Source of the DNA: Patescibacteria group bacterium
GTDB taxonomy: Bacteria; Patescibacteriota; Patescibacteriia; Buchananbacterales; UBA6539
Assembly: GCA_041662625.1 (NCBI GenBank)
Contig: JBAZSB010000001.1
Coordinates: forward strand, 246,467 to 310,466
DNA: 64,000 nt
Direction of reading: 5' to 3'
Shown here: piece by piece, positions 1,261-18,347 of the stretch
Numbering within the stretch: the stretch's first letter is position 1
Layout of the letters: each line of letters starts with the position of its first letter
The notes under the pieces: generated by a model
Databases searched by the model: none
What the model was told of the DNA's origin: nothing
The model's input: the letters and a program-made list of their open reading frames with translations, nothing else
Position numbers and translations under genes: made by a program

Positions 1261-4200
1261 TTATTTTTTACCAGAAAGAGTATTTGGGCTGACCAGTAAA
1301 ACGATTAAGTAGATAACCGCCAAAACTAGAATGACTGCTAGCCAGGTAATCAACCAGCATTGAGGATACCAGATTATTACGGAAACAATAGCAATTAGCG
1401 CCGGAACTAACCCGGAGTATTTGACTGATTTAGTACCATTTTTGCCCTTGAAGGCAATGATTGCTGAGGCAATTAAATCCAGAATAAGTAAGAGCCAGAT
1501 ATAATTACTGCAGTTTTGCGTTGTAGCCGCTGGGGGTGTGGTTTCATCAGTAGTTTCGCCCAGTACGGTCCCTTCTTCAGCTGGCTGTTCAGCTGGCGGA
1601 GTGGGTGGAGTTTCTGTGTCGGTTGGAGTTGTTTCTTCTTGATATTCAACTCCAGCAACATTACCACTTGGATTAGCAGGCGTTCCTTCAGCTGGTGGAG
1701 GAGGAGTTGTCTCTTCGGTTGGTGGGACTTCTTCTGTTGGCGGAATTGCCGGTGGCACTTCCTCTAAAGTGAAGGTTAATTCATCGCCATAGACTTCAGG
1801 CGAAGCGGCTGAAAGTGGCCGGAAATAATAGACTGTAGCTGGTAATAAACCGGTAATTGTAACTGAATGATTGAGAACTTTGGGATCAGTATCAGTTGTG
1901 GCAGTTGACCAGGCATAGCCATAATTTGGTGCATAGCCAATAGCGGGATGGGAAACTAAATCATAGATTACCCGACTGGTAGCTTCGCGGTTAGTCATCC
2001 AAGTTACGGTTACTGAGCCAACTTCAGCTCCTCTGGTTAATCTAATGGTATGAATAAGCAAGCTATAAGGAGTACTACCGCCACCGCCACCTCCGCCACC
2101 GCCGCTGCCACCGCAAGCACCACAGTCGGCAGGACAGGCAGAGCAGGTTTCATTGCCGTTGCAAGAGCCATCTTCACAATATGGTTCGGTTTGATTGCAG
2201 CCTTCGTCAATGTTACTGTCGCAATCATTATCAATGCCGTCGCCACAAACTTCAGTAGCGCCCGGGTTTATACCTCTATCAGAGTCATTGCAGTCGTTAC
2301 CGTTCGGGCAGTAAGCTTCATTATAGACGGAATAAGTATCTTCATCAGCATCAACACATTGGATATCATGGCATTCATTGTTTTCACAATATTGACCCGT
2401 GCTGCAATCCTCATCAGTATTACATTCCGGACCAATCGATTCAGTACATAAGCTGATAGTATAAATGTCACCACCACCCTGGCCAGCACCATCGTCCCGG
2501 ATATCGATCTTATAAGAGCCATCCCAATTAACTGTTCCCCGACCAGCTAATTTAGTGAATGAATCAAGCTGATTGATAGCAACCGTAAGAGAACTTTGGC
2601 CATTAATTAAATAATTTGAATCCTGTAATAAGCTGATTGGATAAGAAACGCCATCAATTTTTATAATATCCCACCAATCTTGCGAACAATTATCATGAGA
2701 GCCGATTGGACTATAGGTTCCGTGACTTAATGATAACTGCCCGCCAGTTACTGTTAGCCAATCGCTACCATCAACGCAGGCTTGGAATTCAATGCAATTG
2801 CCTGTCTGGTTTTGGACTAACACGCAAGCGGATGTGCAAGAATAATTTTCATTTGGTACTCCATCTTGTCCATCGCACTCTTCATTGCCATTATCTTGCG
2901 GTCCGCCGGTGCCAACACCATTGGGTGTTTGCTTAATGCCATCACCGCAGAAAGTTTGGTAATTAAAGAAGTTTATTCCACCAATTCCTTGGCCATCAGC
3001 CAAAGTGACATCCTGAGATAACGGGGTGGTATTAAGCCAGCCAGTAACTAATTCTTCATAAATCGTCCAGATACCGGCAGTCAAGGCATTAAAGCAATAT
3101 AACCCGCTATCGTTAGTTTGAGTCGAGCTTAAGGTGGTATCTTTAGACGCCCAAATTGTCCAGGCTGGGATGACTACATCATTATTATTAAATATTCCAT
3201 CTCGATCATAATCATTATATTTATAACCGCAGATACTATTGGGTTCAATATCCCCTAGCCAATCATTGCCGAAATTAACATAAACGGTTTGTTCTGGAAC
3301 AGCGGTTACATCCTGAAATAAATCAGTGATATTCTTCCAACCCGGCTGCATCTCTTCCTGAACTCGGTAATTACCTGGCGTGACATCTTCAAAGCAGTAA
3401 TTTCCACCTTCGTCAGTTACCCGGTAGTCAATAATGGTTTGGTCGGTAGCGCAATGTAAAGCTTGGACACCGTCGACATCAAAACCATCAGTCTCGGCTC
3501 CGAATATTGTGGCAAACTTATTGGAAGTGTCAGTTAACTTTAAGTATTTAGCCCAAGCCAGACTACCTAAATCAAAAGTGCTGTCTTGGCAACCTTCACC
3601 AGCTAGTTCAACCCAGCTACTACCGTCTTGAGAAGCGGAAACTTTGACTTTTTCCGGATAGCTGGCGCAGCTGGGACTGCCATATGAAGTTTCAACTACA
3701 TCAATGTCATCCCCTGCTTCATTAAGAATTAAATTATCAAAGCTTAAAACCAGTTCACCGCCAAAGCCCAAAGCAACAAATTCAACCGGATCGCTATTGG
3801 AATATTGAGCCGCTCCTAATGCTTTAGAAGGATCGGTTCGTTCAGTGATAATTGGTGTACCATTTTTTCGTGTGCCGGGATTATAGCTAACCACGCCATC
3901 GGCCCATTGTTCACCTTCAGTACAGAAAGAAAACTCGATTAAATTTATAGTCCAATTTGCCAATCCGGGTTCTTCATCACGCTGTCCGTTTTCATTCTGG
4001 TCATGCCATTTATAACCGCAAATTGAGCTTTCGCAATCCTCGTCAACATATCCGTCGCAATCATTGTCAAGCTCGTCGCCACAAAATTCTTTTTCGCCTT
4101 CAGTTGGCACGGCGGAACAAACTGCCGGACCAGCTGGATCTTGCGGGTCGCAAGCGTAAGTACCACTTTGTTGGCAAATGCCTTGGCCGGCAATACATTC

Positions 4201-7200
4201 ACTGCCGACGTTCCAGCCTTCATCAATTAAGTCATCACAGTCATTATCAACGCCATCGCAGACTTCAGTGGTACACTCCGGCGGAGTGGGAATACAGCGG
4301 ACGCTGACATTATCTAAAAATGTGCCTAAAGAATTAGAAGTACCGCCGTCAGCAAATTCCAGCAAAGTTGTATAGCCACTGGCGGTTAAATTATATTGAT
4401 AAGGTGACCAGTTCAGACTACTGCCGCCAGCACCGGTAAGCGTAGAAACTAGGTTACCATCCCAGTTAAAATTCAAGACGTTATCACTGCTGCCAGTATT
4501 TGGTCGCGGTGAAAAATTGAAACTGACTAAATAGTTATAACCGGGCCAAGTGTTTAATTCCTGAGAAATTTTCACTGAAGCCGGTTCGCCATCGCCAGAA
4601 CCATTAGGGCCGGCCCAATCGCCGTCTAATTCAACATATTGGCTGCCATCAGGAATCAAACCGGAGAATAAACCTGATCGATGTAATTCTAAAGTCGCTT
4701 CAGTTGGTCTGGTCTGGCCTGGATAAGAATCAGAAGAAACCCAATCGGTAATCCAACTGGTTAAAGATGGAAGAAATATATCCCATTTGTTGGGGTTAGT
4801 AACAATTGGGTTTTCAAAACTACGGTTAAGCACTAACTCAACATCCGGATCACAGGTTGGCGGTAAGCCACATTCGGGCGAACATTCAAACGAACCGTTT
4901 GGCCCGTCATCGCAGTCTTCATCGCCTTCTTTAATATAATTGCCGCATTCTGGGCATTCTTCGGAATAAGGAGATATGGCCACACCTTCGCTTGTAAAAT
5001 TAAAGGAGAAATGAGATTGGACTGTATGGCGTTCGGCAAAAAAGATGTCCACTACATTATGGCCAGTCAAATGTAAACTGCCGGTTTTAGTGGTTGGGGC
5101 ATGAATGCCGCCATTATCAACGACTAAAACGCCGTCTAGATAAACCCAGGCATCATCATCGGAAGTCAGAGTATAATTATAATCTCCTTCAGTCTCAACT
5201 GAAACTAAGCCGCTCCAGTGAGCACCGAAATGATATTCATGGCCATTATCGATTTCTTCGACTGCTATATCAAAAGGAAAGAAATTTTCACCAAAAGTTA
5301 TAGCATTATCAATTCTTGTAAATTTTAAATATTGTGAATCATACCAATCATCGGTATCCCAGCTACCCAGCGGATCGCCATGACCGTCATCCGGCCATTC
5401 ATTGCCAGGCAAGTTCATATCCTGGTGATCTCTTGAATAATTATAATATTGGCCATACCAGCCGCTGCCTTCAGTTAGCTCTTCACAAGTTAATTGTTCA
5501 AGGCTGCAACTGGCAGAACAACCATCACCATCAGCAATATTGCCATCATCGCAAGTTTCATCACCTTCAATTTCATTATTACTGCAAACTGGTCCGGTTG
5601 GCTGACAGGTCGGATCGTTAGCACAATCTGAATCAGCACAATCAACAAAAGTATCGCCGTCATTATCTATGGTATCAGTACAATTTTGTTCTGGTTCAAT
5701 GGTGCAATTTTCGGAACAGCCGTCGCCGTTAACAGTATTGCCGTCATCGCAGGCTTCATTGCCTTCAAGGGCATCATTACCGCAAACGCTTGGAGTCGGA
5801 CCAGTACAATCAGAATTACAATGGCCATAGACGCCGTTATATTGACTGCCATCATCACAGATTTCCCGACCATTAACTGCCCCATCACCGCAACTTTGCG
5901 TTGTTATACAACTTCCCCACTGACATTCATTGCAGGCTTTACTGCCATTATAACCAGTTTCGGTAAGACATTCATCTGGGGTTTGTTGGTCACAATTTTC
6001 TGATTGTTGATTAACAATATTATCACCGCAATATGGTACATATTCTAAAGTACAGCTTTGGGTACAAATATAATGCGGGGGTACGCCATCAAGGGTATCG
6101 CATTCTTCATCGCCGTTTTTGGTTCCATCGTTACAGCCTTCCTGGGCAACACAATTGCTCCAGTCCAGACAATCTGATTGGCAGGTTTTCTGACCGGCGT
6201 AAGCACCAACAGAACAAGTGTCAGTTTGGCCAACTTCGCAAACTTCACTGTAACCTGGGTAACCCTGATCTAAAATATTATTATTACAAATTGGTAAATA
6301 GTTACCAAAATCTTTATTGGTTAAATTCTGGCCTTCGCTCAGGGTAACACTGTATGATCCGCTTACCGGATAGGTTTGTTGGTAAGGCTGACTGCTCGGT
6401 TCAGCTCCTTCAGAGACAGTATAATTGCCCGGCAATAAACCAGAGAACTGATAACAACCATTACTGTCAGTCACTTGGTTATCCGAGGTATCGCCGCTTA
6501 AAACAATTGGCCAACCAACTAAGGTGCTGTCGCCGGTAATGCTGCTGTCTTTGGCTACATCAGAATATTTACAGCCAGAGATTGAACCATACTGACAGAT
6601 CTCTTCAGAGATTGAATTGTAAATACTTTCTAGATCAGTTTGACTGGGGGCAAAATAATAACTGCCACCAGTAGCGTTAGCAATATATTGCAGCATGGTG
6701 GTGTTAACATCGCTGCCTAAACCAATGGTAAATATTTTGTAACCTAAACCGGCGGCTTCGTCAGCTTTGGCTTTGGCGTAATTAACATCAGCTTGATTTT
6801 CACCGGAGCCACTGCCATAAGGTTTATTGGCTTTGCCGTCAGTCAAAAGAATTGCAACCTTAACCGCTTGCGGATTAGCCCGAACTGAACCTAGCTCATC
6901 GTTAGACAAATCAATACCGTCACCAATATTGGTTGCACCATTAGCCGCTAAAGCATCAACGGCGATTTGTGTTGCCGGATGATCAGTTGATAAACCTTTA
7001 TCCAAATTTGCTGTGGTAGCAAAAGAAACTAAACCAGACTGGTCGTTGAGTCCCAGCAAACTTAGAAAGGTATCGGCAGCGCTTTTAGCGGCGGCTAATT
7101 TATTTGGCGTAGGTGGTACTGCTGGCGTGTAATTATGAGGACAGCTAGCTACACCTTGATTGTTACATTCAGTCTGAGTTAATCCATTTTTGGTGTGTTT

Positions 7201-7479
7201 ATTCCAGCAACCCCATAAATCACTTTTATTTTTATAATATTCACATTTACTTTGGCTACCCGAACTACCACCTTCGTCCATACTGCCTGACCGGTCAATA
7301 ATCAATACAACGTCAAGGTCAGCATCGCACATGCTTGGCGGCAACGGCGTAGCGGAAACTGCTGTTGGTATAAAGGCGGCACCATTAACCGACCAGAGAA
7401 TGGTAACCAAAGAAACAAAAATAGAAAACATTTTGTGTTTTCTAGGCTTTGAATAAGTGGGTTTTCCCATAGTTTGCAT
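1261..7479 (-). CDS. Giant (2072 aa) secreted multidomain adhesin-like protein: vWA, Cys-rich Myxococcus-type and MopE-like repeats, SdrD-B-like, DUF642/CBM-like, PA14, poly-Gly, PAP-N-like Fn3, Pro/Thr/Glu stalk and C-terminal two-TM anchor
   Basis: N-terminal signal peptide. vWA MIDAS motif DRSGSMDEGG. PA14 motif GDYNYTLTSDDDAWVYLDG (about nt 5040-5300). SdrD-B-like SICGYKYNDYDRDG and GYKWHDQNENGQRD. MopE-like motif NPGATEVCGDGIDNDCD. Myxococcus-type repeat ...CDDGN..GDGCS..C. DUF642-like NRSFENP...QYVELDGD. Fn3 TVTWMTNREATSRVIY...TVYYFRP. C-terminus NCSNYIWLLL...YPQCWLITWL. Confidence 0.85.
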   Translation of the reverse strand: MQTMGKPTYSKPRKHKMFSIFVSLVTILWSVNGAAFIPTAVSATPLPPSMCDADLDVVLIIDRSGSMDEGGSSGSQSKCEYYKNKSDLWGCWNKHTKNGLTQTECNNQGVASCPHNYTPAVPPTPNKLAAAKSAADTFLSLLGLNDQSGLVSFATTANLDKGLSTDHPATQIAVDALAANGATNIGDGIDLSNDELGSVRANPQAVKVAILLTDGKANKPYGSGSGENQADVNYAKAKADEAAGLGYKIFTIGLGSDVNTTMLQYIANATGGSYYFAPSQTDLESIYNSISEEICQYGSISGCKYSDVAKDSSITGDSTLVGWPIVLSGDTSDNQVTDSNGCYQFSGLLPGNYTVSEGAEPSSQPYQQTYPVSGSYSVTLSEGQNLTNKDFGNYLPICNNNILDQGYPGYSEVCEVGQTDTCSVGAYAGQKTCQSDCLDWSNCVAQEGCNDGTKNGDEECDTLDGVPPHYICTQSCTLEYVPYCGDNIVNQQSENCDQQTPDECLTETGYNGSKACNECQWGSCITTQSCGDGAVNGREICDDGSQYNGVYGHCNSDCTGPTPSVCGNDALEGNEACDDGNTVNGDGCSENCTIEPEQNCTDTIDNDGDTFVDCADSDCANDPTCQPTGPVCSNNEIEGDETCDDGNIADGDGCSASCSLEQLTCEELTEGSGWYGQYYNYSRDHQDMNLPGNEWPDDGHGDPLGSWDTDDWYDSQYLKFTRIDNAITFGENFFPFDIAVEEIDNGHEYHFGAHWSGLVSVETEGDYNYTLTSDDDAWVYLDGVLVVDNGGIHAPTTKTGSLHLTGHNVVDIFFAERHTVQSHFSFNFTSEGVAISPYSEECPECGNYIKEGDEDCDDGPNGSFECSPECGLPPTCDPDVELVLNRSFENPIVTNPNKWDIFLPSLTSWITDWVSSDSYPGQTRPTEATLELHRSGLFSGLIPDGSQYVELDGDWAGPNGSGDGEPASVKISQELNTWPGYNYLVSFNFSPRPNTGSSDNVLNFNWDGNLVSTLTGAGGSSLNWSPYQYNLTASGYTTLLEFADGGTSNSLGTFLDNVSVRCIPTPPECTTEVCDGVDNDCDDLIDEGWNVGSECIAGQGICQQSGTYACDPQDPAGPAVCSAVPTEGEKEFCGDELDNDCDGYVDEDCESSICGYKWHDQNENGQRDEEPGLANWTINLIEFSFCTEGEQWADGVVSYNPGTRKNGTPIITERTDPSKALGAAQYSNSDPVEFVALGFGGELVLSFDNLILNEAGDDIDVVETSYGSPSCASYPEKVKVSASQDGSSWVELAGEGCQDSTFDLGSLAWAKYLKLTDTSNKFATIFGAETDGFDVDGVQALHCATDQTIIDYRVTDEGGNYCFEDVTPGNYRVQEEMQPGWKNITDLFQDVTAVPEQTVYVNFGNDWLGDIEPNSICGYKYNDYDRDGIFNNNDVVIPAWTIWASKDTTLSSTQTNDSGLYCFNALTAGIWTIYEELVTGWLNTTPLSQDVTLADGQGIGGINFFNYQTFCGDGIKQTPNGVGTGGPQDNGNEECDGQDGVPNENYSCTSACVLVQNQTGNCIEFQACVDGSDWLTVTGGQLSLSHGTYSPIGSHDNCSQDWWDIIKIDGVSYPISLLQDSNYLINGQSSLTVAINQLDSFTKLAGRGTVNWDGSYKIDIRDDGAGQGGGDIYTISLCTESIGPECNTDEDCSTGQYCENNECHDIQCVDADEDTYSVYNEAYCPNGNDCNDSDRGINPGATEVCGDGIDNDCDSNIDEGCNQTEPYCEDGSCNGNETCSACPADCGACGGSGGGGGGGGGSTPYSLLIHTIRLTRGAEVGSVTVTWMTNREATSRVIYDLVSHPAIGYAPNYGYAWSTATTDTDPKVLNHSVTITGLLPATVYYFRPLSAASPEVYGDELTFTLEEVPPAIPPTEEVPPTEETTPPPPAEGTPANPSGNVAGVEYQEETTPTDTETPPTPPAEQPAEEGTVLGETTDETTPPAATTQNCSNYIWLLLILDLIASAIIAFKGKNGTKSVKYSGLVPALIAIVSVIIWYPQCWLITWLAVILVLAVIYLIVLLVSPNTLSGKK

Positions 7480-7709: not shown

Positions 7710-9059
7710 TTATTTTTTACCCAAAAGAGTATTGGGGCTAGTAAAAAGAATAATTAAATAGACAACCGCTAGGACTAAAACTATTGCTAACCAAGTAACC
7801 AGCCAGCATTGAGGATACCAGATTATTACTGAAACAATAGCAATTAGCGCCGGAACTAACCCAGAGTATTTGACTAGCTTATTACCATTTTTACCTTTAA
7901 GGGCAATAATTGCCGCTGTCACTAAATTCAGAACAAGTAAAAGCCAGATGTAATTAATGCAATTTTTTGGCGTAGCGGCTGGCTCTTCTTCGGTAGTTTC
8001 GGCAAGAACTTTCCCTTCTTCTTCAGTCGGCTGCTCCTTTCCGGTAACTACTGTGGAAGTCGGCGTTATTTCTTCTTGAAAGCCAACCCCAGCTACTGTA
8101 CCAGCCGGATTGGTTGGCGCAGTTGGGTTGCCAGATATTGGCGGAGTTTCAGCCGGCGGCAGGGTTTCTTCTGCCGGTGGAACTGGTAATCCAGCTGATT
8201 CGCCTGTAGTTTTGAAAGTTAAACTGCGGCTGACCGTATCAGGCGAAGCGTGGGAAATTACGCGATAATAATAAGTTGTGCCGGGCGTTAAGCCGGTCAA
8301 AGTCACGGAATGAAAAGTAACTTTGGTTAAATCATCAATCGTTGAATGGGCATAACCGTAATTCGGTGGACTGCTGAAATCAAAAGTGTGCGCTTCATTT
8401 TCCGCGCCCCAAATCACCCGGCTGGTAGATAAATAATTAGTCTGCCAAGTGAGTGTCGCCGTAACAGTCATAACATTAATTTCCGCTTCATTGAAAATCG
8501 TCAGACCGGCTGGCACACTGCCACCACCACCGCTACCGCCACCAGCTCCTCCACCGCCGCCTTGGCCGGGCGGAGTAACGGGTGTCTGCTCGCCTTGAAA
8601 ACCGACTAAGATATCGAAATTATTCAAAATTTTATTTTTGTAATCATTGCCGGCGCTGGAATTAAAAGTCACTATTAAATCATAAGTTGTACTCGCGTTG
8701 TTTGCCAAATTGGATAAAAATGTCTCGCCTTGATTGAAAAATTCAGTTAAACTTTTATTTAGAATCGTTTGGCTCCCCTCTTTTATTTCTAAATTTAAAG
8801 CATTGCCAAAATGATTTGGGTCATTGACATTAATCGCTTCAATAGCCAAGGGCTTTGATACGCCGCTTTTGTTTTTAATTTCAATGTGAGCGGTTACTGC
8901 TTGGCCGGGCAAAAAATTCACCGCGCCAAAAAGCGGATTGGGATTAAAGATGACAACTATATTACTTTCGGTCGCTAAAACTGGGCCGGCAAACATAAAT
9001 CCGGCTATCAGGGCAATAGCGGTAATTCCGATAAATTCTAATTTTTTTATTCTAAGCAT
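7710..9059 (-). CDS. Secreted surface protein (449 aa) with signal peptide, Gly-rich linker, PAP-N-like Fn3 domain, Pro-rich stalk and the shared C-terminal two-TM anchor
   Basis: The signal peptide, GQGGGGGAGGGSGGGG linker, Fn3 segment TLTWQTNYLSTSRVIWG...TTYYYRVIS and the C-terminal 85 aa are about 85% identical to the giant protein at both protein and DNA level. Confidence 0.8.
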   Translation of the reverse strand: MLRIKKLEFIGITAIALIAGFMFAGPVLATESNIVVIFNPNPLFGAVNFLPGQAVTAHIEIKNKSGVSKPLAIEAINVNDPNHFGNALNLEIKEGSQTILNKSLTEFFNQGETFLSNLANNASTTYDLIVTFNSSAGNDYKNKILNNFDILVGFQGEQTPVTPPGQGGGGGAGGGSGGGGSVPAGLTIFNEAEINVMTVTATLTWQTNYLSTSRVIWGAENEAHTFDFSSPPNYGYAHSTIDDLTKVTFHSVTLTGLTPGTTYYYRVISHASPDTVSRSLTFKTTGESAGLPVPPAEETLPPAETPPISGNPTAPTNPAGTVAGVGFQEEITPTSTVVTGKEQPTEEEGKVLAETTEEEPAATPKNCINYIWLLLVLNLVTAAIIALKGKNGNKLVKYSGLVPALIAIVSVIIWYPQCWLVTWLAIVLVLAVVYLIILFTSPNTLLGKK

Positions 9060-9070
9060 ATTGATTATTT

Positions 9071-11596
9071 TTAAGCGGCAGGAGCAGCGTCAGTCGGCGC
9101 TGGTGGCGCTGGATCAGGACCGGGAGCGGACTCTACTGGCGCGGGCGGCTCAACCGTAATCGCCGGCTCCGGCTCAAGGGCCGGATTTTGTTCGCTTAAT
9201 TCCGCCGGGGTATCCGGAATATTTTCCGTAGTATCAGCCGGCTGGTCGTTAGAATCGCCGGTTTCATTGCTAAAATTGTCTGCGGGATTATCAGCGGGCA
9301 GCTCAGGTTCAGTCACCAAACCGGTATGATCAGCTGGATCAGTAATAGTAGTTTCTTCTTCCGGCACGGTTGTTTCCAAAGGTGTATCAGTTGGTGGTTC
9401 AGCTACTGTTTCAGCCGCCTCCTGACCGGAATTATCACCAGTATTTCCCGAATCGGCCGGGATCTCAATGGCTGGCTCGGTATTACCGGTATCGGCCGGC
9501 GGATCAGTATTTTCCGGGGTAGTTGTTGCTTCATCTTGTGTTATTATAGGCGTTTCAAAAATCGATGGCTCTTCAATCGGGAACAACTCCATCCCTTCTG
9601 GCAGCAAGCCCAAAAATCTCAGCATTTCTATTTCTTCGGGCAAAAGCAAACCGTAATCAATGGGCGGACAAAAATCTTGGTCTGATTGATCCCAGGCCTG
9701 AACCATAAAGTTTTCCGGCCCATGGGCCACCACCTTAACTCTGGCTGTATGCGAAGGCGCATAATAACAACCGCCATTACCGTCATCAAAGCAAAGCGGC
9801 ACCCGGAAATCATAAGTTCCGCTATTATTGATTCCTCTCACGACATTACCCCAAGTGGCACCACTATCTTTGGAATACCAAAGGTCAATAGTTAAAGCGG
9901 AATCAGGGCCGTTAGGATTGGTTGCGGTCCAGCTTATATTATGGGTTCGGCCCACCCACCAAATTTCGCCGCCATTAGGCGATAAAACCGTAACTTGGGG
10001 CAAACCTAAATCGATGAAATCCGACGGCTGATCCGTATCAAGACCCAAAGGCACTCGGCCCAGCATATGGCCTTCTGTCACATCCGTGCAGCCAGGATCC
10101 CAAACGTTTAAATTGTAGTTTGGCCAATCTGAATCAGGCGCGCCCCAGTTCATCTGATCAATAATTTTGCCGGCGGGATTTTTTAAAATAAGCATGTCGG
10201 CGGTGTTGTTGAGGCTATTGCCGATTGGGCTACTTAAAACAATTCTGGTAACACCAGTGGGAATTTCCCAATAATTCCAGGTAGTATCTTGATTAGTAAT
10301 AATGGCAAAGCCGCCGGCGGGAATTAGAGTAGAATCTGGTAAAATATCGCAAGCGTTATTGTCGCAAATTTTCCAATTTGATAAATCAACAGAACCAGAG
10401 GCCGGATTATAAAGTTCAATCCACTCGTTGTCAGCTTCATCACCGTGGCTTGAATCCACATCATAATAAACTTTATTTATGGCCACATAACTCCAGTCAC
10501 CGGAGGAAACCGTATCAGCAATTGTTTCTTCATCGGTAAAACCTTGGCTTTCGTTGGTAAAATCCGTCTGCCAACCAAAAACAGTATATTTGAATTCGCA
10601 GGTTTTATTTTGCAGTGAAGAAGGCGCATCAGCTGGCAAGCCGATATCTAGCTGCCATTCATTGGTTAAAATTGAAAAGATGCTTGGCGTGTAAGTAAAA
10701 TCCAGTAAATTTCCCGAGTATACTAAAGTTCCGTTAAGGTAAGCATCAACATCAAGGGCTTGGCAAAAATCAGTGTCGCCTGATGTTTGTTCGATATTCA
10801 TCTGATATTGAAAATTCAAAAGGCCGATATTAATAATATCAATCCACCGCCCGACAGATTCGTCAGGTGTTATTTTTCGGGTTAGGCCGTCATCAAATTT
10901 GTTATTAATTTCATCAATGCAGCCATTGATAACCGACGGACTGAAAACGCTTAGTTGTCCGGCTAATATATTATTGGCTTCAGTCAAAACTTCGCCGGCC
11001 GTCATGTCTTCGCACGGACTGGCTGGTTCGTTGGCATAATAATTTTCCAGCGTGCTGGTGTTGACGCTAAAATTGGGATCATAAACGTCAAAGCCGAGGT
11101 TAAGCGTTAGGGCAACAACTTGGCCGGCCAAGACTCCGGCTTCGGTATCAGTCGGGTTTTCATGGTTTTGCGAAAATGGCGCCGGTGGTCCCCCGCTTGG
11201 CAAAAAATTTTCTATATCCGCGCTGGTTGCAAAATGGGCAGAATAGCCAAACCCCCCGCCGATAGTCAAACCAGTGGGAAAGGCCAGATCAAAATTAGCG
11301 TCGCGGTAAACGGCTGGGTTATCACCATGAGCAGAGGCTCCCCAACCGCCTTGGGTTTGGGTGCGAAAGCCGTCTGAGCGGGTAAAATCCAAAGAAAAAT
11401 CCAGGGTACTGGCGGTAAAATTACCATCTGAAGTTTCCAAATCGTTATAATAGGCAATGGTCTGACCAATTGCCGAAAGTCCGGTCCAATTAAGGCCAAA
11501 CAATAACAAAATCGCTACTACTTTTAATAATGGTTTTTTTACCAAATCAAAATTAGTTTGTTTTTTCTGGATTTTTCTTTTTCTTGATTTCCGCAT
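9071..11596 (-). CDS. Secreted 841-aa protein with camelysin/TasA-type (SipW-cognate) N-terminus, lamin-tail domain, BNR/Asp-box and an acidic Pro/Thr/Glu-rich C-terminal tail
   Basis: N-terminus ...LSAIGQTIAYYNDLETSDGNFTASTLDFSL matches the camelysin-type mature N-terminus. LTD motif EWIELYNPASGSVDLSNWKI. BNR motif SKDSGATWGN. The start overlaps the sipW-like ORF by 44 nt, so an alternative TTG/GTG start is possible. Confidence 0.7.
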   Translation of the reverse strand: MRKSRKRKIQKKQTNFDLVKKPLLKVVAILLLFGLNWTGLSAIGQTIAYYNDLETSDGNFTASTLDFSLDFTRSDGFRTQTQGGWGASAHGDNPAVYRDANFDLAFPTGLTIGGGFGYSAHFATSADIENFLPSGGPPAPFSQNHENPTDTEAGVLAGQVVALTLNLGFDVYDPNFSVNTSTLENYYANEPASPCEDMTAGEVLTEANNILAGQLSVFSPSVINGCIDEINNKFDDGLTRKITPDESVGRWIDIINIGLLNFQYQMNIEQTSGDTDFCQALDVDAYLNGTLVYSGNLLDFTYTPSIFSILTNEWQLDIGLPADAPSSLQNKTCEFKYTVFGWQTDFTNESQGFTDEETIADTVSSGDWSYVAINKVYYDVDSSHGDEADNEWIELYNPASGSVDLSNWKICDNNACDILPDSTLIPAGGFAIITNQDTTWNYWEIPTGVTRIVLSSPIGNSLNNTADMLILKNPAGKIIDQMNWGAPDSDWPNYNLNVWDPGCTDVTEGHMLGRVPLGLDTDQPSDFIDLGLPQVTVLSPNGGEIWWVGRTHNISWTATNPNGPDSALTIDLWYSKDSGATWGNVVRGINNSGTYDFRVPLCFDDGNGGCYYAPSHTARVKVVAHGPENFMVQAWDQSDQDFCPPIDYGLLLPEEIEMLRFLGLLPEGMELFPIEEPSIFETPIITQDEATTTPENTDPPADTGNTEPAIEIPADSGNTGDNSGQEAAETVAEPPTDTPLETTVPEEETTITDPADHTGLVTEPELPADNPADNFSNETGDSNDQPADTTENIPDTPAELSEQNPALEPEPAITVEPPAPVESAPGPDPAPPAPTDAAPAA

Positions 11597-12071
11597 AAAT
11601 TTTTCTGGCTTCGTCGAAAATTATAGCTAAGGCCGGCACGATGATTATTAGCAGGAATCCCAGCGGTTTTCTGGCAAAATCAACGGCATAACCGGCAAAG
11701 GGAACGGAAAACAGAACTTTGCCGTGAATCTCGGCTGGCGTAACCTCTCTGGTATCTGGCGCGTTATTAGCGTCGCCCTTGGTGATATAAATCGGCTTAC
11801 CTTCCTGAACGCGAATGTCATTAATCCGGTGGGTAATCGGCGTTTGGGTTTTACCGATTTTGCCGAAAGTAATGATGTCGCCGATCTGATAATTAGTTGC
11901 CGGCTTTACCATTACAATACTGCCGGTATGAATTGCCGGCTCCATTGAACCGGAAAGCACAGTCAGAACCTTGAAATTACCGGTCAGGGGCAAAATCGAA
12001 ATCACCAAAAGCAAGGCGATCGCCGCAATCAGCGCAATAAATATGTAATAAACAACTTTAAAGATTTTCAT
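11553..12071 (-). CDS. sipW: Signal peptidase I, ER/archaeal type (SipW class, S26B)
   Basis: N-terminal TM helix followed by VLSGSMEPAIHTGSIVMVKP (SGSMEP catalytic-Ser motif of Sec11/SipW-type SPases). Size 172 aa. Sits directly adjacent to camelysin/TasA-like genes, as in Bacillus tapA-sipW-tasA. Confidence 0.8.
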   Translation of the reverse strand: MKIFKVVYYIFIALIAAIALLLVISILPLTGNFKVLTVLSGSMEPAIHTGSIVMVKPATNYQIGDIITFGKIGKTQTPITHRINDIRVQEGKPIYITKGDANNAPDTREVTPAEIHGKVLFSVPFAGYAVDFARKPLGFLLIIIVPALAIIFDEARKIYAEIKKKKNPEKTN

Positions 12072-12095: not shown

Positions 12096-14111
12096 TTACC
12101 AGCCAAAATCTGGTAAATCTGGTGGCCAATCAATTGTACAAGTCGGATAATTTAGTCCCGGCATATAGCAAATACAGCCGGTTTGACCGGTATTGGGATC
12201 ACAATATCCATACGATGAACTTGTGCAAGTAGGCAGGATTGTAGGATTATGCGCACAACCAGCTATGCCGCAAATGTCGGCTGTACAGGCGTTACTGTCA
12301 TCGCAATTATTCGGACAATTTGGATTGAGGTTGCAGCTGACTACGCCGGCGCTGCAAGTACCGCTAAATGTGCATTGTAAAGAAACTAAGCTCACATGCT
12401 GGCAAATGGTTGCCGAGCAGGAATCAGCAGTACAGCTGTTATTGTCATTACAATCGGCACTGGAAGTGCAGCCGCCCGGAGGAATTAGTGGCGCAATGCA
12501 TGCTCCAATTGCGCTGCAGGTATATCCGTTGCAACCGCCGCCTAACATACAGGTTAAATTTGAGCACGATGCGCCCACATTGGGACTTGCCTCGTAAACA
12601 CAGCCCCACATGTCTCCGCCCGCGCCGATGCAAGTCGATAATAGACAGGAATTCATCGCCTGGCTAGCGCATATATTATTACTCGGCGTATGAACGCAGC
12701 TGCCATTCACGCAAGTATCAACAGTGCAAGCTACGCCATCATTATTACAATCGTTATTACTTGTACATTCAGGCGCTGGTGGCAGACAATCGGCCGCACA
12801 GGTGGCAGTCGTTTCCGAAGGCGAGCAAGTGCCATCCGGACAGACCGGGTTACAATCTAAACTATTTAGAAAACAACCATAATCAGCGCAATCGATTTGG
12901 CCATCACCTTCATTGTCTATACCGTCATGGCAGTTAGTTTCCGGGCTGCAAACGCCATCTTCATCAGTTGCGCCATCACAGTCATTATCAAATGAATCAC
13001 AAGCTTCCACACCGTTGTTTGTCGGGGTGCAATCACTGCAATTATTATCAGTACTACCGTCGCAATCATCGTCTAAGCCATTGTCACAGATTTCAGTTCC
13101 GGCTTGATTATTTTGCGTACATTGAAGCGCCCCGCCAGTACAAGTTAAAGTTCCAGCTGAACAAACACCCGATAAGCCCGTGTTGCACACGCTTCCGCCG
13201 CCTGGATTTCCTTCATCAACAACTTGGTCGCAATCATCATCTAGGCCATTACAGACTTCTGTGGTTGGCGTGCAAGTGGGCTCGCATGCTAAATCGCTGC
13301 CGTTACAATCTTCATCAATATCATTGCCGCAGATTTCGGTTGTCGGAGAGCAGCCGCCGGTAGCGTTACAAACAAATTGGGGCAAATTTCTGGCTTGAAC
13401 CGCGGTAAAGATAATATCCGCTAGTAAACTGTCAGTTTGGATTTCATTGCCGGTGGCCAAAGGCACATTCCATTTAACGCCCAAACAATGAGTAGTGCCG
13501 CCTTGCATTGGCGCGCCTAAAGATGAATCGGCAATCGGCCAGTAACCCGCCTGGACGGTCTGGTTTTGAATTACATAAGTTTCGTCTTCATCTTTGATAT
13601 TATTACAATTATGCTCACCGGCTCCGTTATCGTTCCAAATTGTGAAAAATAAATTATTTTGCAGTTCACCTTCGCCCGCGCCGCAGGTGGAGTCAACCTT
13701 GTTTTCCGGACTGTCGCAACCGTTGTCATCTTTAACTAAATTGGCAATTTCGGCGCACATCCAGGCGTCATTATTATCCACGTGCAAGCTGATAGTGTCT
13801 TCACCACTATCCCCGGGCTTAACATCCAAAAGATTAAAATAAAGTTCACCATTCAAATCTTTGGCTGACCAGGTACAGAAACATTCCTCTTGTGTCCCCT
13901 GCCAGAAATACTTTCCTGATCCGCTCGGATCTAAAATGCAAACTTTGCCGTTGTAATGGCAGGTGTTATCAATTTGTAAATTGAATTTTCCGGCTTTAAA
14001 AGTATTTCCGACTGAGCTTTCGGTGTCGGAAAAATAGGCAATGGTTCCGCCAATGGCAATGGCAGCCACAATTGCGATGACACCGAGACTGATTACGATT
14101 TTTTTCTTCAT
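12096..14111 (-). CDS. Camelysin/TasA-like domain (Peptidase M73 family) fused to a long C-terminal Cys-rich MopE-like repeat region
   Basis: MKKKIVISLGVIAIVAAIAIGGTIAYFSDTESSVGNTFKAGKFNLQID is the SipW-cognate signal plus TasA-like N-terminus. Residues ~250-671 carry repeated C..DxDCDG..DE motifs (CGNDIDEDCNG, CNGLDDDCD, CDNGLDDDCDG, CDSFDNDCDG). Confidence 0.8.
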   Translation of the reverse strand: MKKKIVISLGVIAIVAAIAIGGTIAYFSDTESSVGNTFKAGKFNLQIDNTCHYNGKVCILDPSGSGKYFWQGTQEECFCTWSAKDLNGELYFNLLDVKPGDSGEDTISLHVDNNDAWMCAEIANLVKDDNGCDSPENKVDSTCGAGEGELQNNLFFTIWNDNGAGEHNCNNIKDEDETYVIQNQTVQAGYWPIADSSLGAPMQGGTTHCLGVKWNVPLATGNEIQTDSLLADIIFTAVQARNLPQFVCNATGGCSPTTEICGNDIDEDCNGSDLACEPTCTPTTEVCNGLDDDCDQVVDEGNPGGGSVCNTGLSGVCSAGTLTCTGGALQCTQNNQAGTEICDNGLDDDCDGSTDNNCSDCTPTNNGVEACDSFDNDCDGATDEDGVCSPETNCHDGIDNEGDGQIDCADYGCFLNSLDCNPVCPDGTCSPSETTATCAADCLPPAPECTSNNDCNNDGVACTVDTCVNGSCVHTPSNNICASQAMNSCLLSTCIGAGGDMWGCVYEASPNVGASCSNLTCMLGGGCNGYTCSAIGACIAPLIPPGGCTSSADCNDNNSCTADSCSATICQHVSLVSLQCTFSGTCSAGVVSCNLNPNCPNNCDDSNACTADICGIAGCAHNPTILPTCTSSSYGYCDPNTGQTGCICYMPGLNYPTCTIDWPPDLPDFGW

Positions 14112-14142
14112 AGATTTTTGCTGATTGAAAATTTAAATTAAA

Positions 14143-14169
14143 ATATTTGGTGGCTGCCTTAGTCTCACT
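14143..14169 (-). terminator. Hairpin (possible terminator/attenuator) between TasA-like paralogues 2 and 1
   Basis: ggctgccttag-tctca-ctagggcagcc with an A/U-rich tail on the minus strand. Confidence 0.5.
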
Positions 14170-14296
14170 AGGGCAGCCTTTACCCCCACACCAAATAAGT
14201 CTAGTGCATTTTAAACTTATTTAGTGTAGGGGAAAATCCCCTAAGCACTCCCCCTTTCACCAAAAATAATTGGTGTGGGGGTAAATATTTCAAGTA

Positions 14297-15586
14297 TTAG
14301 TAGTCTAAGTCTTGAATCGGAGGCAGAGCTACACTATCACAACTGAAGTTTTCGTTGTTTCTTTGCTGAGTGGCATACAAAACAATGTCAGCAAGCAGTT
14401 GATCTGTTTGCGCGTTGTTTTGATTACCGCTACCCGAGCATGAAATAGTTCCGTCCAAAGCAACTGTTTGAGTTCCAACACACCAGGCAATTCCCAAATT
14501 ACCAGAGCCATTTGCCAAAATCGGTAATCTGCCAATTGCTGGAAGAGTATCAAACGGCCCATTATATAGGAGTGGTGACTCTGTACCCGGTTCATATACT
14601 CCATCGCCATCATCTTCCCAAACAACTAGATTAAGGTATTGAGACAATTCTCCTGGTTCACCGGTATCTCCTGAAGCTGTTTCCGGTTCAGCTAAGCTGT
14701 TCTCTAAATTCTGCTCATTATTTACCAGCATACAAACATAAGCGTCATTGCTTTCAACATGCAGAGAAATTACATTAGTTCCCCAGTCGCCCGGTTTAAC
14801 ATCACCGAAATTCCAGAAAGTGTCGCCTAAGCCGAGATCTCTCTCACCCCAAAGCGTACAAATGCCGCCGCCTTCGAACTGGCTGGTGCAGTTAAGTTCC
14901 ATAACGCTGATATCATCCAAATATCCGCCGTAGGAATTATTGGTCCCTAAATCGGAAAACATCACTTTTGTGGCAGCATCGGTGGCAATAAAGTTATAGG
15001 TATATGCTGTCCAAACCGTATTTGAACCGCCGGCAGAAGCTGCGCCAATGGTGTCATTTACCAAAATGGTGCTGTCGCTCACGACTTTGACTATGGCGCC
15101 AATGGTGTTATCGCCAGCCGGACGATTCGGGCGGGGCGAATACCAAAAGGTCAGGCGGTACTGCTGGCCGGCAACTGTTGTTAAAGTTTGGGAAATAGCA
15201 GATGAATTATTACTGTCTAATTCCGCTAACTGGCTGCCGCCATGTGGCGCACCCGCGGCGTTGTCCTGGATTTCTAGACCCGCGCCAGATTCCACTGTCC
15301 AAGAAGTTAGGCTGGCATCAGGATAAATTGCCCAACCGCCTGATGGCACGTTTGGCGTCTCAAAGCCGCCATTTAAAATAAGATTACTGCCAGTCTCTAC
15401 ACAAATGCCCACACAATTATGGCCATTATAGGTCTGTTTGGTGTGATCGACTTTTAAGTCAATCGAACCGGCGGTAAAGGTATTACCGCTGGAAATTTCC
15501 GTGTCGCTGAAATAAGCCACGGTTGCCCCGATTGCCAAAGCGGCGACGACCGCGATGACACTCAAGCTTAGTACGATTTTCTTCAT
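14297..15586 (-). CDS. Camelysin/TasA-like protein with inserted DUF642/CBM-like beta-sandwich domain
   Basis: N-terminus MKKIVLSLSVIAVVAALAIGATVAYFSDTEISSGNTFTAGSIDLKVD. Insert contains LNGGFETPNVPSGGWAIYP...LTSWTV. The conserved TasA-like C-terminal half (ISLHVESNDAY...QTDQLLADIVLYATQQRN) is shared with the paralogues. Confidence 0.8.
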   Translation of the reverse strand: MKKIVLSLSVIAVVAALAIGATVAYFSDTEISSGNTFTAGSIDLKVDHTKQTYNGHNCVGICVETGSNLILNGGFETPNVPSGGWAIYPDASLTSWTVESGAGLEIQDNAAGAPHGGSQLAELDSNNSSAISQTLTTVAGQQYRLTFWYSPRPNRPAGDNTIGAIVKVVSDSTILVNDTIGAASAGGSNTVWTAYTYNFIATDAATKVMFSDLGTNNSYGGYLDDISVMELNCTSQFEGGGICTLWGERDLGLGDTFWNFGDVKPGDWGTNVISLHVESNDAYVCMLVNNEQNLENSLAEPETASGDTGEPGELSQYLNLVVWEDDGDGVYEPGTESPLLYNGPFDTLPAIGRLPILANGSGNLGIAWCVGTQTVALDGTISCSGSGNQNNAQTDQLLADIVLYATQQRNNENFSCDSVALPPIQDLDY

Positions 15587-15637
15587 AGTTTTTGTTGATT
15601 TATTAATTTTTAAAATAATTATTTAAAACCTTTATCG

Positions 15638-15664
15638 GTTGCCTTAGCGAGGCTAAGGCAACCT
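15638..15664 (-). terminator. Hairpin (possible terminator/attenuator) between TasA-like paralogues 3 and 2
   Basis: ggttgccttagc-gag-gctaaggcaacc perfect 12-bp stem with an A/U-rich tail on the minus strand. Shares the gccttag core with the 14143 hairpin. Confidence 0.55.
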
Positions 15665-15688
15665 AAAAGATTTCTAGTATTATCGGTT

Positions 15689-16960
15689 TTAGTTCAGTAG
15701 TAGAGTTGTGCTGGCACAACTGAAATTCTCGTTGTTTCTTTGCTGTTCTGCATAAGCGGTAAAGGAAGCAGACAGAATGTCAGTTTGGGCAATATCACCC
15801 ATACTGGAACCATCGCAAAGAATATTATTACCGCTCAAACTCTGCGTTCCGGCACACCAGGCAAAGCCAATATATTGGGTATTGGATGCCACAAGCGATA
15901 TATTACCTATTGCCGTATTGAAGGAGGCGTTTGGTCCGGTGATTACTGTTTCACCTTCGTATACGCCATTACCGTCGTCTACCCAGGCAAAAACCTTGAT
16001 AAACTGCGAAAGCTCTCCGACTACGGAATTGATATTATCACCCGCGGTAATTTCCGGATCAACAACGGTTTCTTCTACGTCAACAATGTCGCTGGTGATT
16101 AAACAAGCATAAGCGTCATTGTTGTACACGTGCAGGCTGATAAGATTCGTTCCTCGGTCACCAGGTTTGACATCGTCAAAGCTGAAGAATTTTTCATTGG
16201 TCAAATCTTTTTCGCCCCAAAGCTGACAATGAGCTTTGTAGTAGTTATCCTGGCAATTCCCGCTAATGAAGAACTTATAAATAAGTCCGCCGGGATTGTT
16301 GAACGGCGTACCGGGCGGATTTAACAAAGCCCAGTTTTTAACTTCAAAGGTGAGAACATTTGTGCCTTGCACGATATAGCTGTTGACCAATGCTCCGGGA
16401 ATATGAAGCATGTTTCCCTGCCGATAACCAAACTCCATGGTATTTTCGGCAATTAGTGTACCGTTTAGCCAAATTTTGATGCTGTTATCAGAACCGACGC
16501 CAAACCAGAGGTCAGATGAAAGAATCGGACCATACCACTCAAATGTCTTTTCAAAAGTGTAAGTGACATCCGAAGTGGTATCTTCTTGTCTGGTTGGGTC
16601 TGATTCCCAGATCCATTTAGCGCCCGCGGCTACTAAGTCGGGGTCATTTTGCGCTGTCCAGGCTGAATGGATGAAGAAAGGCGTAAGGCTGCCAACAAAC
16701 ACCGCGGGATATGGAGTAACTGAAACTCCGTTTCTTTTAACCACGATGTTGCTCGGGTTGCTTATTAAGGTGAGGTTGCAAGTATTGCAATCAACATCAT
16801 TATAAGTCTGCCGCAAGTGATCCACTTTCAAATCCATGGTGCCGGCAACTAAGATATTGCCAGCTGAAGTCTCCGTATCATTGAACAAAGCCACAGTTGC
16901 TCCAATTGCTACTGCCGCAACTATTCCGATAACACTCAAGCCGAGTATTATTCTTTTCAT
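15689..16960 (-). CDS. Camelysin/TasA-like protein with a different inserted beta-sandwich domain
   Basis: N-terminus MKRIILGLSVIGIVAAVAIGATVALFNDTETSAGNILVAGTMDLKVD. C-terminal half (ISLHVYNNDAYACL...QTDILSASFTAYAEQQRN) is paralogous to 14297..15586. Only a 27-nt gap separates it from the upstream paralogue. Confidence 0.8.
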   Translation of the reverse strand: MKRIILGLSVIGIVAAVAIGATVALFNDTETSAGNILVAGTMDLKVDHLRQTYNDVDCNTCNLTLISNPSNIVVKRNGVSVTPYPAVFVGSLTPFFIHSAWTAQNDPDLVAAGAKWIWESDPTRQEDTTSDVTYTFEKTFEWYGPILSSDLWFGVGSDNSIKIWLNGTLIAENTMEFGYRQGNMLHIPGALVNSYIVQGTNVLTFEVKNWALLNPPGTPFNNPGGLIYKFFISGNCQDNYYKAHCQLWGEKDLTNEKFFSFDDVKPGDRGTNLISLHVYNNDAYACLITSDIVDVEETVVDPEITAGDNINSVVGELSQFIKVFAWVDDGNGVYEGETVITGPNASFNTAIGNISLVASNTQYIGFAWCAGTQSLSGNNILCDGSSMGDIAQTDILSASFTAYAEQQRNNENFSCASTTLLLN

Positions 16961-16987
16961 ATCGGTTTAATGATTATTGCGGGTTAA

Positions 16988-17719
16988 TTAGGATTGGAAA
17001 GGATTTGGATTATTTCTGTACTGTTCAACTTGGAATTCCATTGTTGCACTCATGCTATCATTCTGGACTTCATTGCCAACTGTGGTTGGTAAATTCCAGG
17101 TAATCCCAAAACAGACGGTTTGATCACCTAATACAGGAGTTGGCAAGGTCCAAGTTTCACCGTTAGCATCAATGGTTCCAGCAGAAATCAATTCAACATC
17201 GCTTTCATTTAGAATGTTATCACAATTACCATCTGCAAAAACGGTAAATATGAGATTTTCTCTTAACTCACCGGACGTTAAGCCATCAGTATCTACGCTT
17301 GCTTCCGGTTCGGTAAGCGTATTGTCATTATCGGTAACATCATCAATAACTAATCTCAACCAGGCATCATTATTATTGACGTGTAAGCTTATAGTGTTTT
17401 CTCCAGAATCACCTGGCTTAAGATCGGAGAAATTAAAGAATTTCTGAACGCCTAAATCAGTTGCTGTCCAAGTGCCATCGCAAAGAGTTCCTGGTACTGG
17501 GTAAATATCAGTTCCTTGCCATACATATACCTCTTGGTCATTAAGAGCACAAACATTTCCGTTGTAATGCTGGGTACTATCAACTGTTAAATCAATTGCT
17601 CCAGCAGTAAAAGTATTACCAGCTGAAGTTTCGGTGTCGCTGAAGTAAGCAACGGTTGCGCCAATGGCAATCGCGGCCACAATGGCAATCGCGCTTACGC
17701 TAATTAGAATTTTTTTCAT
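16988..17719 (-). CDS. Camelysin/TasA-like protein, minimal 243-aa form
   Basis: MKKILISVSAIAIVAAIAIGATVAYFSDTETSAGNTFTAGAIDLTVD...ISLHVNNNDAWLRL...QNDSMSATMEFQVEQYRN. First gene of the minus-strand cluster, preceded by about 600 bp of non-coding DNA. Confidence 0.85.
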   Translation of the reverse strand: MKKILISVSAIAIVAAIAIGATVAYFSDTETSAGNTFTAGAIDLTVDSTQHYNGNVCALNDQEVYVWQGTDIYPVPGTLCDGTWTATDLGVQKFFNFSDLKPGDSGENTISLHVNNNDAWLRLVIDDVTDNDNTLTEPEASVDTDGLTSGELRENLIFTVFADGNCDNILNESDVELISAGTIDANGETWTLPTPVLGDQTVCFGITWNLPTTVGNEVQNDSMSATMEFQVEQYRNNPNPFQS

Positions 17720-18347
17720 AGTTTTTTATTATTCTTTCTTATCCCCCACCACTTTTTATTATTAAACGAAAGTAGTGAGAGAGTTTATTAAGTAACTTAC
17801 CCTATCATTTAAGACAGGGCCTTGCCCTTTTTTGATGGGGCAAGCCACTTAATCTAATCTCGGTTACGACCCGAGAACGTCGACCTTTATCCGCCTAAAT
17901 TTTGGCGGATTAATTATTTTATTAGGTAAGTTACAACTTGTTATTTAATTTCTCAAGGAACAAAAAAATCTCTACCAATCGAGCAGAGACTTAATATATA
18001 TAAATTTTTTATTGTTGAAATCTGGCAATTACAGCAATGCTTCCCAATTTGCCAATAAAGATATTCTTTTGTGCTTTTATTACCCATGTCTTAATTCTTA
18101 AATTAAAATAAAAAACCAATTTCTAACCCCCTATTTTTCACCCCCTTTGCTTTTTGAAGCTTTTATGCCCGTCTTTGGCAGGTTAAATTTGGTTTTTGGT
18201 TTTTTCTTTTTTGTCGATTTTAGCTTAATGAAAGTAAAATCTCCCCCTTAGCTTATCAAAAATATTTTTTATTAGCAATAGCTATCGAGCCTGATTTATC
18301 CACACTTTAAAAACTATTTGGTCACCCTAATTTTTAAAACAAAACTA

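Follow-up and report, generated by a model that had tools for sequence, protein, structure and literature searches.

A lamin tail domain protein with a TasA-like N-terminal domain encoded beside a sipW-like gene in Patescibacteria

We analyzed the minus-strand open reading frame (ORF) at positions 9071-11596 of a 64,000-nucleotide stretch of DNA (the window) from a metagenome-assembled genome of the Patescibacteria, or candidate phyla radiation (CPR). The 841-residue product is 100% identical to the public entry P0001, 'lamin tail domain-containing protein [Patescibacteria group bacterium]', and its database annotation shows the lamin tail domain (LTD) only. Profile comparisons place its N-terminal domain with the TasA-like proteins encoded upstream, and it is a well-supported candidate substrate of the SipW-type signal peptidase whose gene it adjoins. 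The ORF belongs to a series of eight minus-strand genes arranged head to tail, comprising four TasA-like genes, a sipW-like gene, the 841-residue ORF, and genes for a 449-residue protein and a 2072-residue VWA/PA14 protein.

12096-17719, minus strand: four TasA-like paralogues (16988-17719, 15689-16960, 14297-15586 and 12096-14111), presumed major or variant subunits; PF12389 and/or TIGR04088 matches, alignment
11553-12071, minus strand: sipW-like gene for an endoplasmic reticulum/archaeal-type signal peptidase I; TIGR02228, 131 bits
9071-11596, minus strand: the 841-residue ORF, read here as a TasA-family accessory protein with a payload of LTD, immunoglobulin (Ig)-like domain and acidic tail; ORF and translation
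7710-9059, minus strand: 449-residue partner, proposed membrane anchor or acceptor; hhalign, AlphaFold model, synteny
1261-7479, minus strand: 2072-residue VWA/PA14 protein; domain scan

The sipW-like ORF scores well above the cut-off of 52 bits for the NCBIfam model TIGR02228; against the Bacillus SipW model it reaches 119 bits, under the cut-off of 190.

The SipW-type N-terminus and its start codon

The N-terminal region of the 841-residue protein and its gene start comprise the following features.

11553-11596, minus strand: overlap of the sipW 3′ end with the annotated ATG start, 44 nt; ORF coordinates
11543-11545, minus strand: alternative TTG start at codon 18, 7 nt past the sipW stop; would give MVKKPLLKV...
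11528-11596, minus strand: basic n-region, residues 1-23, with 10 Lys/Arg; sequence, with similar K/R-rich leaders in P0110, P0037 and P0011
11462-11527, minus strand: h-region/transmembrane (TM) helix, residues 24-45, with the family-specific GLNWxGLSA; AlphaFold helix 17-49, family consensus
11384-11461, minus strand: SipW-type c-region and predicted donor strand, residues 46-71; alignments, hidden Markov models (HMMs), family conservation

The N-terminus reads MRKSRKRKIQKKQTNFDLVKKPL, then LKVVAILLLFGLNWTGLSAIGQ, then TIAYYNDLETSDGNFTASTLDFSLDF, with the SipW-type motif TIAYYNDLETSDGNFTASTLDFSL positioned after the basic n-region and the h-region. The original prediction, made from the letters of the window, had described here a basic stretch, a TM-like h-region and the mature-end pattern of the four TasA-like paralogues, and all three are present. 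The similarity persists when the N-terminus is aligned with the four paralogues, with 16 invariant columns, and an HMM built from TasA-like non-LTD N-termini only (59 sequences, 4 from the window and 55 from other CPR genomes) matches the 841-residue protein with 27.7 bits (E 1.6e-8). Of the 179 ORFs in the window with 60 residues or more, this CPR-specific HMM matches just five, namely the 841-residue ORF and the four TasA-like paralogues, and because the match is significant and confined to these five proteins, the N-terminal likeness is not attributable to chance.

Among 60 homologues of the 841-residue protein, the set to which all family counts below refer, conservation along the protein peaks in the N-terminal motif. 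T46 (56/60), A48 (52/60), D52 (59/60), E54 (59/60), N59 (54/60) and F67 (57/60) are retained, L65 is likewise near-invariant, and the family consensus is T-x-A-Y-F-N-D-x-E-x-S-x-x-N-x-F-x-A-x-x-L-D-F-S-L. Cleavage is predicted between A48 and Y49 by analogy with A27|A28 of TasA, and Y49 is the predicted mature end from alignment to TasA. In that alignment residues 49-60 presumably match the donor strand of TasA; Y50 falls at the position of F29, L53 at that of I32 and F60 at that of F39. The donor-strand stretch is disordered in the AlphaFold monomer (predicted local distance difference test (pLDDT) score <50, residues 46-60) and the sandwich is modeled with confidence. The suggestion that the protein might be a fifth SipW substrate is well supported by the significant match of the motif, its near-invariance in the 60 homologues and the position of a sipW gene immediately upstream in 26 of 30 loci.

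The annotated ATG does overlap the peptidase ORF by 44 nt, as had been noted and as the ORF coordinates confirm; gene callers choose this ATG (11596), hence the overlap, and with longest-ORF starts the sipW and LTD-protein ORFs also overlap in 18 of 26 homologous loci. The true start is either ATG(11596) or TTG(11545). The basic leader of the ATG form, MRKSRKRKIQKKQTNF, resembles those of P0110 (MARLKRKRKKQNNF) and P0037 (MKLKRKKQNNF), and ATG-like n-regions of at least 15 residues with 30% K/R occur in 37 of the 60 homologues; some of these long n-regions lie wholly downstream of sipW and therefore are not artefacts of the overlap. The TTG form, MVKKPLLKV, is close to MLYKPIIKI of P0018, a TTG-like n-region of 5-6 residues before the h-region is found in the remaining 23, and a chance open stretch of 17 codons is not improbable. 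Inspection for Shine-Dalgarno sequences does not decide between the two codons, because most genes here are without one. With either start, sipW and the 841-residue gene are contiguous and tightly coupled, separated by a 7-nt gap or sharing the 44-nt overlap.

Gene starts in the window generally have A-rich leaders with the Shine-Dalgarno sequence mostly absent, an AGGAG-like sequence being present in only 2 of the 19 starts inspected. The length of the n-region in the family is bimodal, either 5-6 residues or 15-99 residues with ~30% K/R, and n-regions of the long class exceed in length and basicity what is usual for a cleaved signal peptide.

The TasA-like core and the C-terminal payload

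Beyond the N-terminal motif the protein is composed of a beta-sandwich interrupted at its hinge by a helical insert, followed by the LTD, the Ig-like domain and an acidic tail.

10883-11380, minus strand: 166-residue helical insert (GFRTQTQGGWG...) at the hinge after the donor strand; pLDDT >85, similarity to type IX secretion system (T9SS) proteins
10499-10882, minus strand: TasA-like beta-sandwich core, residues 239-366; hhalign, AlphaFold strands 241-365
10007-10486, minus strand: LTD, residues 371-530; PF00932, Foldseek
9677-9997, minus strand: Ig-like domain, residues 534-640, Kre9_KNH-like; PF10342 below cut-off, all-beta in the model
9851-9874, minus strand: single Asp-box SKDSGATW, residues 575-582; sequence
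9074-9583, minus strand: 170-residue acidic Pro/Thr/Glu/Asp tail; composition, pLDDT 30-40

In hhalign comparisons the family N-domain profile aligns with a deep profile of TasA-like paralogues at 98.7% (E 4.3e-16, 149 columns), and the homology spans the signal peptide to the last strand. Against the four window paralogues alone just the first 50 columns aligned, the deeper profile being the one that covered the whole domain. The TasA/camelysin model PF12389 matches 11 of the 60 family members, reaching profile positions 15-79 and thus extending past the signal region, and exceeds its gathering score (22.5 bits) in two of them, P0012 (31.3 bits) and P0010 (26.1 bits). Because the N-domain is homologous to the TasA-like paralogues over its whole length, the 841-residue protein is, on profile evidence, a paralogue within the TasA family, extended at its C-terminus, and is not homologous to TapA. 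Against TIGR04087, the TapA model, it scores only 15.3 bits (E 0.011; cut-off 80), confined to the N-terminal 64 residues, and the folded N-domain aligns end to end with the TasA-like profile, unlike the V-set Ig domain of TapA. The earlier proposal of an accessory protein in a TapA-like role thus stays plausible as an analogy, while membership in the TapA family fails on both the model score and the TasA-like character of the N-domain throughout.

A macroglobulin- or TapA-like fold, considered from the Foldseek search with the whole model, was set aside; most matches were to multi-Ig arrays of a generic kind (complement MG domains, Saf/Fim pilins), at root mean square deviations (rmsd) >15 Å. 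HMMER searches of the PDB sequences with the 841-residue protein, a short paralogue and two profiles returned no TasA or TapA match, because the deposited constructs are without the signal region and too remotely related for HMMER.

Homology searches identified over 70 CPR proteins built to the same plan throughout, from the n-region, the GLNWxGLSA h-region and the motif through a beta domain of ~125 residues to the LTD, Ig-like domain and acidic tail, and the 841-residue protein belongs to this previously unannotated Patescibacteria family. In a scan of 1.84 billion cluster representatives, 2762 proteins reached E<=1e-30; of the 150 best, about 80 are full-length members matching in a single stretch and the others are giant proteins in which the Ig-like module is repeated.

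The 166-residue insert follows the LDFSLDF strand directly and is found in the 841-residue protein and a subset of its relatives, being missing from most members; the TasA-like paralogues of the window carry inserts of their own at the same hinge site. The insert has no Pfam match. It contains the motifs GFRTQTQGGWG...NPxxYRDxxF...EAGVLAGQ and shares 48% and 44% identity with two copies carried by a T9SS-sorted protein from Cryomorphaceae (Bacteroidota), and the same module stands at the mature N-terminus of ~45 Bacteroidota T9SS/SprB proteins. By sequence it looks like a mobile extracellular module common to CPR bacteria and Bacteroidota.

The LTD was correctly recognized in the original prediction: PF00932 matches residues 371-485 with 56.6 bits (E 3.8e-15; gathering score 34.3), Foldseek of the model retrieves the tails of lamin A/C and B1 (3gef, 1ifr, 3jt0; probability 1.0, template-modeling score 0.61-0.66), and 52 of the 60 family members contain the domain. 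The adjacent domain, residues 534-640, is matched by PF10342 (Kre9_KNH) at a sub-threshold 20.6 bits, with matches to this model in 14 of the 60 members. The BNR motif reported within it is one genuine, exact Asp-box (S-x-D-x-G-x-T-W) that is conserved in the family, but no BNR profile of Pfam matches the 841-residue protein even at E<=10 and the surrounding domain is an Ig-like sandwich, not a propeller. Asp-boxes occur in several non-propeller folds, and the motif is therefore no proof of a sialidase-like domain. Asp-box-bearing Ig-like modules are also found in giant proteins of 2,000-6,900 residues (P0241, P0243, P0246 and others), in 10-56 tandem copies.

The composition of the C-terminal 170 residues (E 14%, D 9%, P 19%, T 15%, K 0%, R 0%) bears out the acidic Pro/Thr/Glu tail that had been described. 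AlphaFold predicts the tail to be disordered, it has neither a TM segment nor a sorting signal, and acidic tails with almost no Lys (0-5%) are present in all members measured. Across the family the payload is modular, with the LTD lost or a CBM96 or surface-Ig domain added, and the N-terminal module is constant, a pattern that would fit an adaptor or adhesin role.

A conserved cassette with a membrane-anchored partner

The genomic context was compared in 80 loci from GTDB species-representative genomes, retrieved by search with the trimmed family alignment and annotated by phmmer and hmmsearch with the window proteins as queries. Thirty-four of the 80 encode a family member with the N-terminal motif, and the denominators given here are the loci with enough flanking sequence. 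The gene directly upstream on the same strand is sipW in 26 of 30 loci, the one directly downstream encodes a homologue of the 449-residue protein in 28 of 32, and 21 of 22 have one or more TasA-like genes upstream (mean 2.1). The cassette recurs in ~30 species-level genomes. Because these adjacencies recur from locus to locus, the order TasA-like(1-4), sipW, LTD protein, 449-residue protein is a conserved unit across CPR lineages. Some genomes have a second, divergent pair of sipW-like and LTD-protein genes near the main cassette (L007, 5259-6976; L026, 6991-9735).

The 449-residue protein is currently annotated 'fibronectin type III domain-containing'. Its AlphaFold model is composed of a signal helix, a sandwich (residues 34-154), an FN3-like domain (187-283), a disordered Pro/Thr/Glu linker and three C-terminal TM helices. 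The N-domain aligns by hhalign with the LTD-family N-domain at 98.2% (E 3.9e-14, 148 columns), and the alignment has a gap positioned exactly over AYFNDxExSxxNxF; that is, the donor segment is absent from the 449-residue protein. It likewise aligns with the TasA-like profile (90.4%, E 1.4e-6) from just past the donor strand onward. Foldseek with the 449-residue model returned Enterococcus faecium WxLIP (9i1y) first, and the TasA fibre 8aur_A is also listed (E 1.3e-4, probability 1.0). The original prediction had offered the LTD protein as a possible anchor or accessory; the anchor part of that idea is better suited to the product of the next gene, which combines a sandwich without the donor strand with three C-terminal TM helices.

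The surrounding genes show further features. The four TasA-like paralogues form a modular set built on one core: the 429-residue paralogue has a DUF642/choice-of-anchor-C insert, the 423-residue paralogue has an unannotated insert of ~190 residues at the same hinge, and the 671-residue paralogue has a Cys-rich C-terminal extension of ~420 residues (Dicty_CTDC, MopE-like, acidic disulfide repeats). The 2072-residue protein encoded directly downstream of the cassette contains VWA, PA14, SdrD_B and CarboxypepD_reg domains, Cys-rich repeats and an FN3-like domain; its homologues lie close to the cassette in only two of the fetched loci (L066 and L075), indicating a loose linkage. Upstream of the first TasA-like gene is a promoter-like site (17944-17916, minus strand), and after the preceding DUF4015 glycosyl-hydrolase-like gene is a terminator-like hairpin (17992-17966, minus strand; 11 pairs and a T-run). 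By consensus matching, the region 17916-17992 is a plausible operon boundary; a scan for promoters and terminators inside the operon was uninformative.

Proposed role and relation to known systems

We favor, with moderate confidence, the view that the 841-residue protein is a minor, specialized subunit of a TasA-type, SipW-dependent cell-surface assembly, which it would join by means of a donor strand at its N-terminus and in which it would display a variable payload. The protein would be exported by Sec and cleaved by SipW after A48, and the freed N-terminus (Y49-N59) would act as a donor beta-strand entering the open sandwich of a partner, either the downstream 449-residue membrane protein or a TasA-like fibre subunit. 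The helical insert, LTD, Ig-like domain and acidic tail would thereby be displayed as a binding end. The 449-residue protein, predicted to accept a strand and to be unable to donate one, would tie the assembly to the membrane, and because it is acceptor-only and fixed in the membrane it is the natural candidate for the anchor. The 841-residue protein may then be an adaptor plugged into that anchor, or it may cap a TasA-like chain or form its tip at the distal end.

Several observations count against this model. The score of the 841-residue protein with the NCBIfam SipW-cognate signal model TIGR04088 (18.4 bits in the ATG form, 19.3 bits in the TTG form) lies just at the threshold of 19, PF12389 has no match on the protein itself at E<=0.01 (gathering score 22.5 bits), and Foldseek with the whole model has no TasA structure in the top 50. 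The unusual conservation of GLNWxGLSA, together with K/R-rich n-regions of up to 99 residues, could mean an uncleaved signal anchor, and the acidic tail is without a recognizable anchoring or binding signature. LTD function in bacteria is unknown (PMC6085458).

The possibility of a signal anchor can be framed as an alternative in which the N-terminal helix stays uncleaved and the protein is a type II signal-anchored surface protein with a basic cytoplasmic stub, whose membrane-proximal TasA-like motif would nucleate or tether fibres as a true TapA-like anchor. The GLNWxGLSA h-region is far more conserved than ordinary signal peptides, 37 of the 60 homologues have n-regions of 15-99 residues with 30% K/R, AlphaFold models residues 17-49 as one continuous helix, and TapA itself co-localizes with the membrane (PMC10151520). 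We nevertheless consider this arrangement unlikely: the small residues at -3 and -1, T46 and A48, are kept almost invariantly and align to the cleavage site of TasA, the 841-residue gene overlaps that of a dedicated signal peptidase, and a separate protein with C-terminal TM helices is already encoded next in the operon.

A secreted adhesin or matrix protein that has borrowed the SipW export signal, does not assemble with the TasA-like proteins and binds a host surface, DNA or mineral through its payload alone is favored by the occurrence of LTDs among numerous unrelated proteins secreted by bacteria, nucleases included (PMC6085458), by LTD relatives, most of them outside the cassette, in 434 GTDB genomes, and by the Ig-like module being a common repeat of giant adhesin-like proteins. 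Such independence is quite improbable given that the protein retains a complete TasA-like sandwich besides the signal, that the donor segment is its most conserved part, that its gene is strictly co-linear with that of a donor-less TasA-like partner, and that the payload varies and the N-module does not. A BNR/sialidase-like glycan-processing enzyme or a camelysin-type metalloprotease, suggested by the exact Asp-box and by the Pfam name of the TasA family, Peptidase_M73, is extremely unlikely and was rejected: the Asp-box is a lone copy inside an Ig-like sandwich with no BNR profile at E<=10, Pfam and NCBIfam detect no catalytic domain, and TasA is a structural fibre protein (PMC9674648).

Returning to the assembly subunit model, a more specific and distinctly tentative version is a plug-and-socket arrangement, in which the membrane-anchored, acceptor-only TasA-like 'socket' would capture the SipW-freed strand of the modular 'plug', the LTD protein, and the sandwich of the plug would in turn attach a TasA-like chain bearing inserted binding domains. 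This would constitute a conserved, self-contained surface display system of Patescibacteria based on donor strands. If correct, a TasA-type fibre would for the first time have a defined membrane anchor, the socket, and the whole would be a candidate host-attachment organelle of CPR episymbionts.

TasA, TapA and SipW make up the model Gram-positive fibre system, in which fibre anchoring and termination remain unclear, and CPR bacteria live attached to host cells by structures that are largely unknown. A payload paralogue that bears the donor segment, paired with a membrane-anchored protein that is without it, offers a concrete and testable wiring diagram for anchoring or tipping TasA-type fibres, and gives a role to a widespread family so far labeled just 'lamin tail domain-containing'. 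The combination of a constant assembly module with a variable payload (LTD, CBM96, Ig and the module shared with Bacteroidota T9SS cargo) suggests a general surface-display scaffold in reduced genomes. In the searchable literature on CPR or Patescibacteria together with SipW, TasA or camelysin we found no description of the cassette, the sole related statement being that PF12389 homologues exist in Patescibacteria.

The closest known systems differ from the CPR cassette in instructive ways. TasA polymerizes when the N-terminal strand of the mature protein (residues 28-38) inserts into the following subunit (PMC9674648). The TasA/camelysin family (PF12389) and the 841-residue protein share the signal/donor motif AxFxDxExSxxNxFxAGxLDL, sandwich homology over the whole domain and co-encoding with sipW; the 841-residue protein differs in its compact sandwich, its foreign 166-residue hinge module and a C-terminal payload of ~470 residues, and PF12389 is not significant on it. 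TapA (YqxM) of the Bacillus subtilis tapA-sipW-tasA operon has a disordered N-terminus that resembles the TasA donor strand and starts assembly by donating it (PMC9674648, PMC10151520), and the tapA stop and sipW start overlap (PMC9674648, PMC10151520). The two proteins have in common a SipW-type signal, a disordered donor-strand-like N-terminal segment, a low-copy accessory gene that physically overlaps sipW, and the proposal that strand donation serves to start or anchor TasA fibres (PMC10151520, PMC9674648). They differ in gene order, which is sipW followed by the 841-residue gene in the CPR cassette and tapA followed by sipW in B. subtilis, and in fold, which is TasA-like and not V-set Ig (TIGR04087, 15 bits vs 80); the CPR protein also adds the LTD, the Ig-like domain and the 170-residue acidic tail, and has a separate membrane-anchored partner.

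For that 449-residue partner the nearest parallel is WxLIP (DUF916-DUF3324-TM) of the Enterococcus WxL loci, the top Foldseek match, which likewise combines a tandem pair of Ig-like domains with a TM anchor at the C-terminus and which binds its partner surface protein by beta-strand insertion (PMC10599100). The likeness is one of models, with low alignment quality (rmsd ~17 Å over both domains), and there are no WxL proteins here. In concept, the 841-residue protein also resembles AbpB of the Pyrobaculum archaeal bundling pilus and FimH-type tip adhesins, the shared idea being a minor subunit which provides the first complementing strand and bears distal beta-rich adhesin domains (PMC9245690). 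Homology to these is not detectable; AbpB is TapA-like, and FimH is an acceptor without a donor strand and so of opposite polarity. By analogy, the 841-residue protein may be the functional counterpart of TapA or of a FimH-type adaptor; in its evolutionary origin it is a paralogue of TasA.

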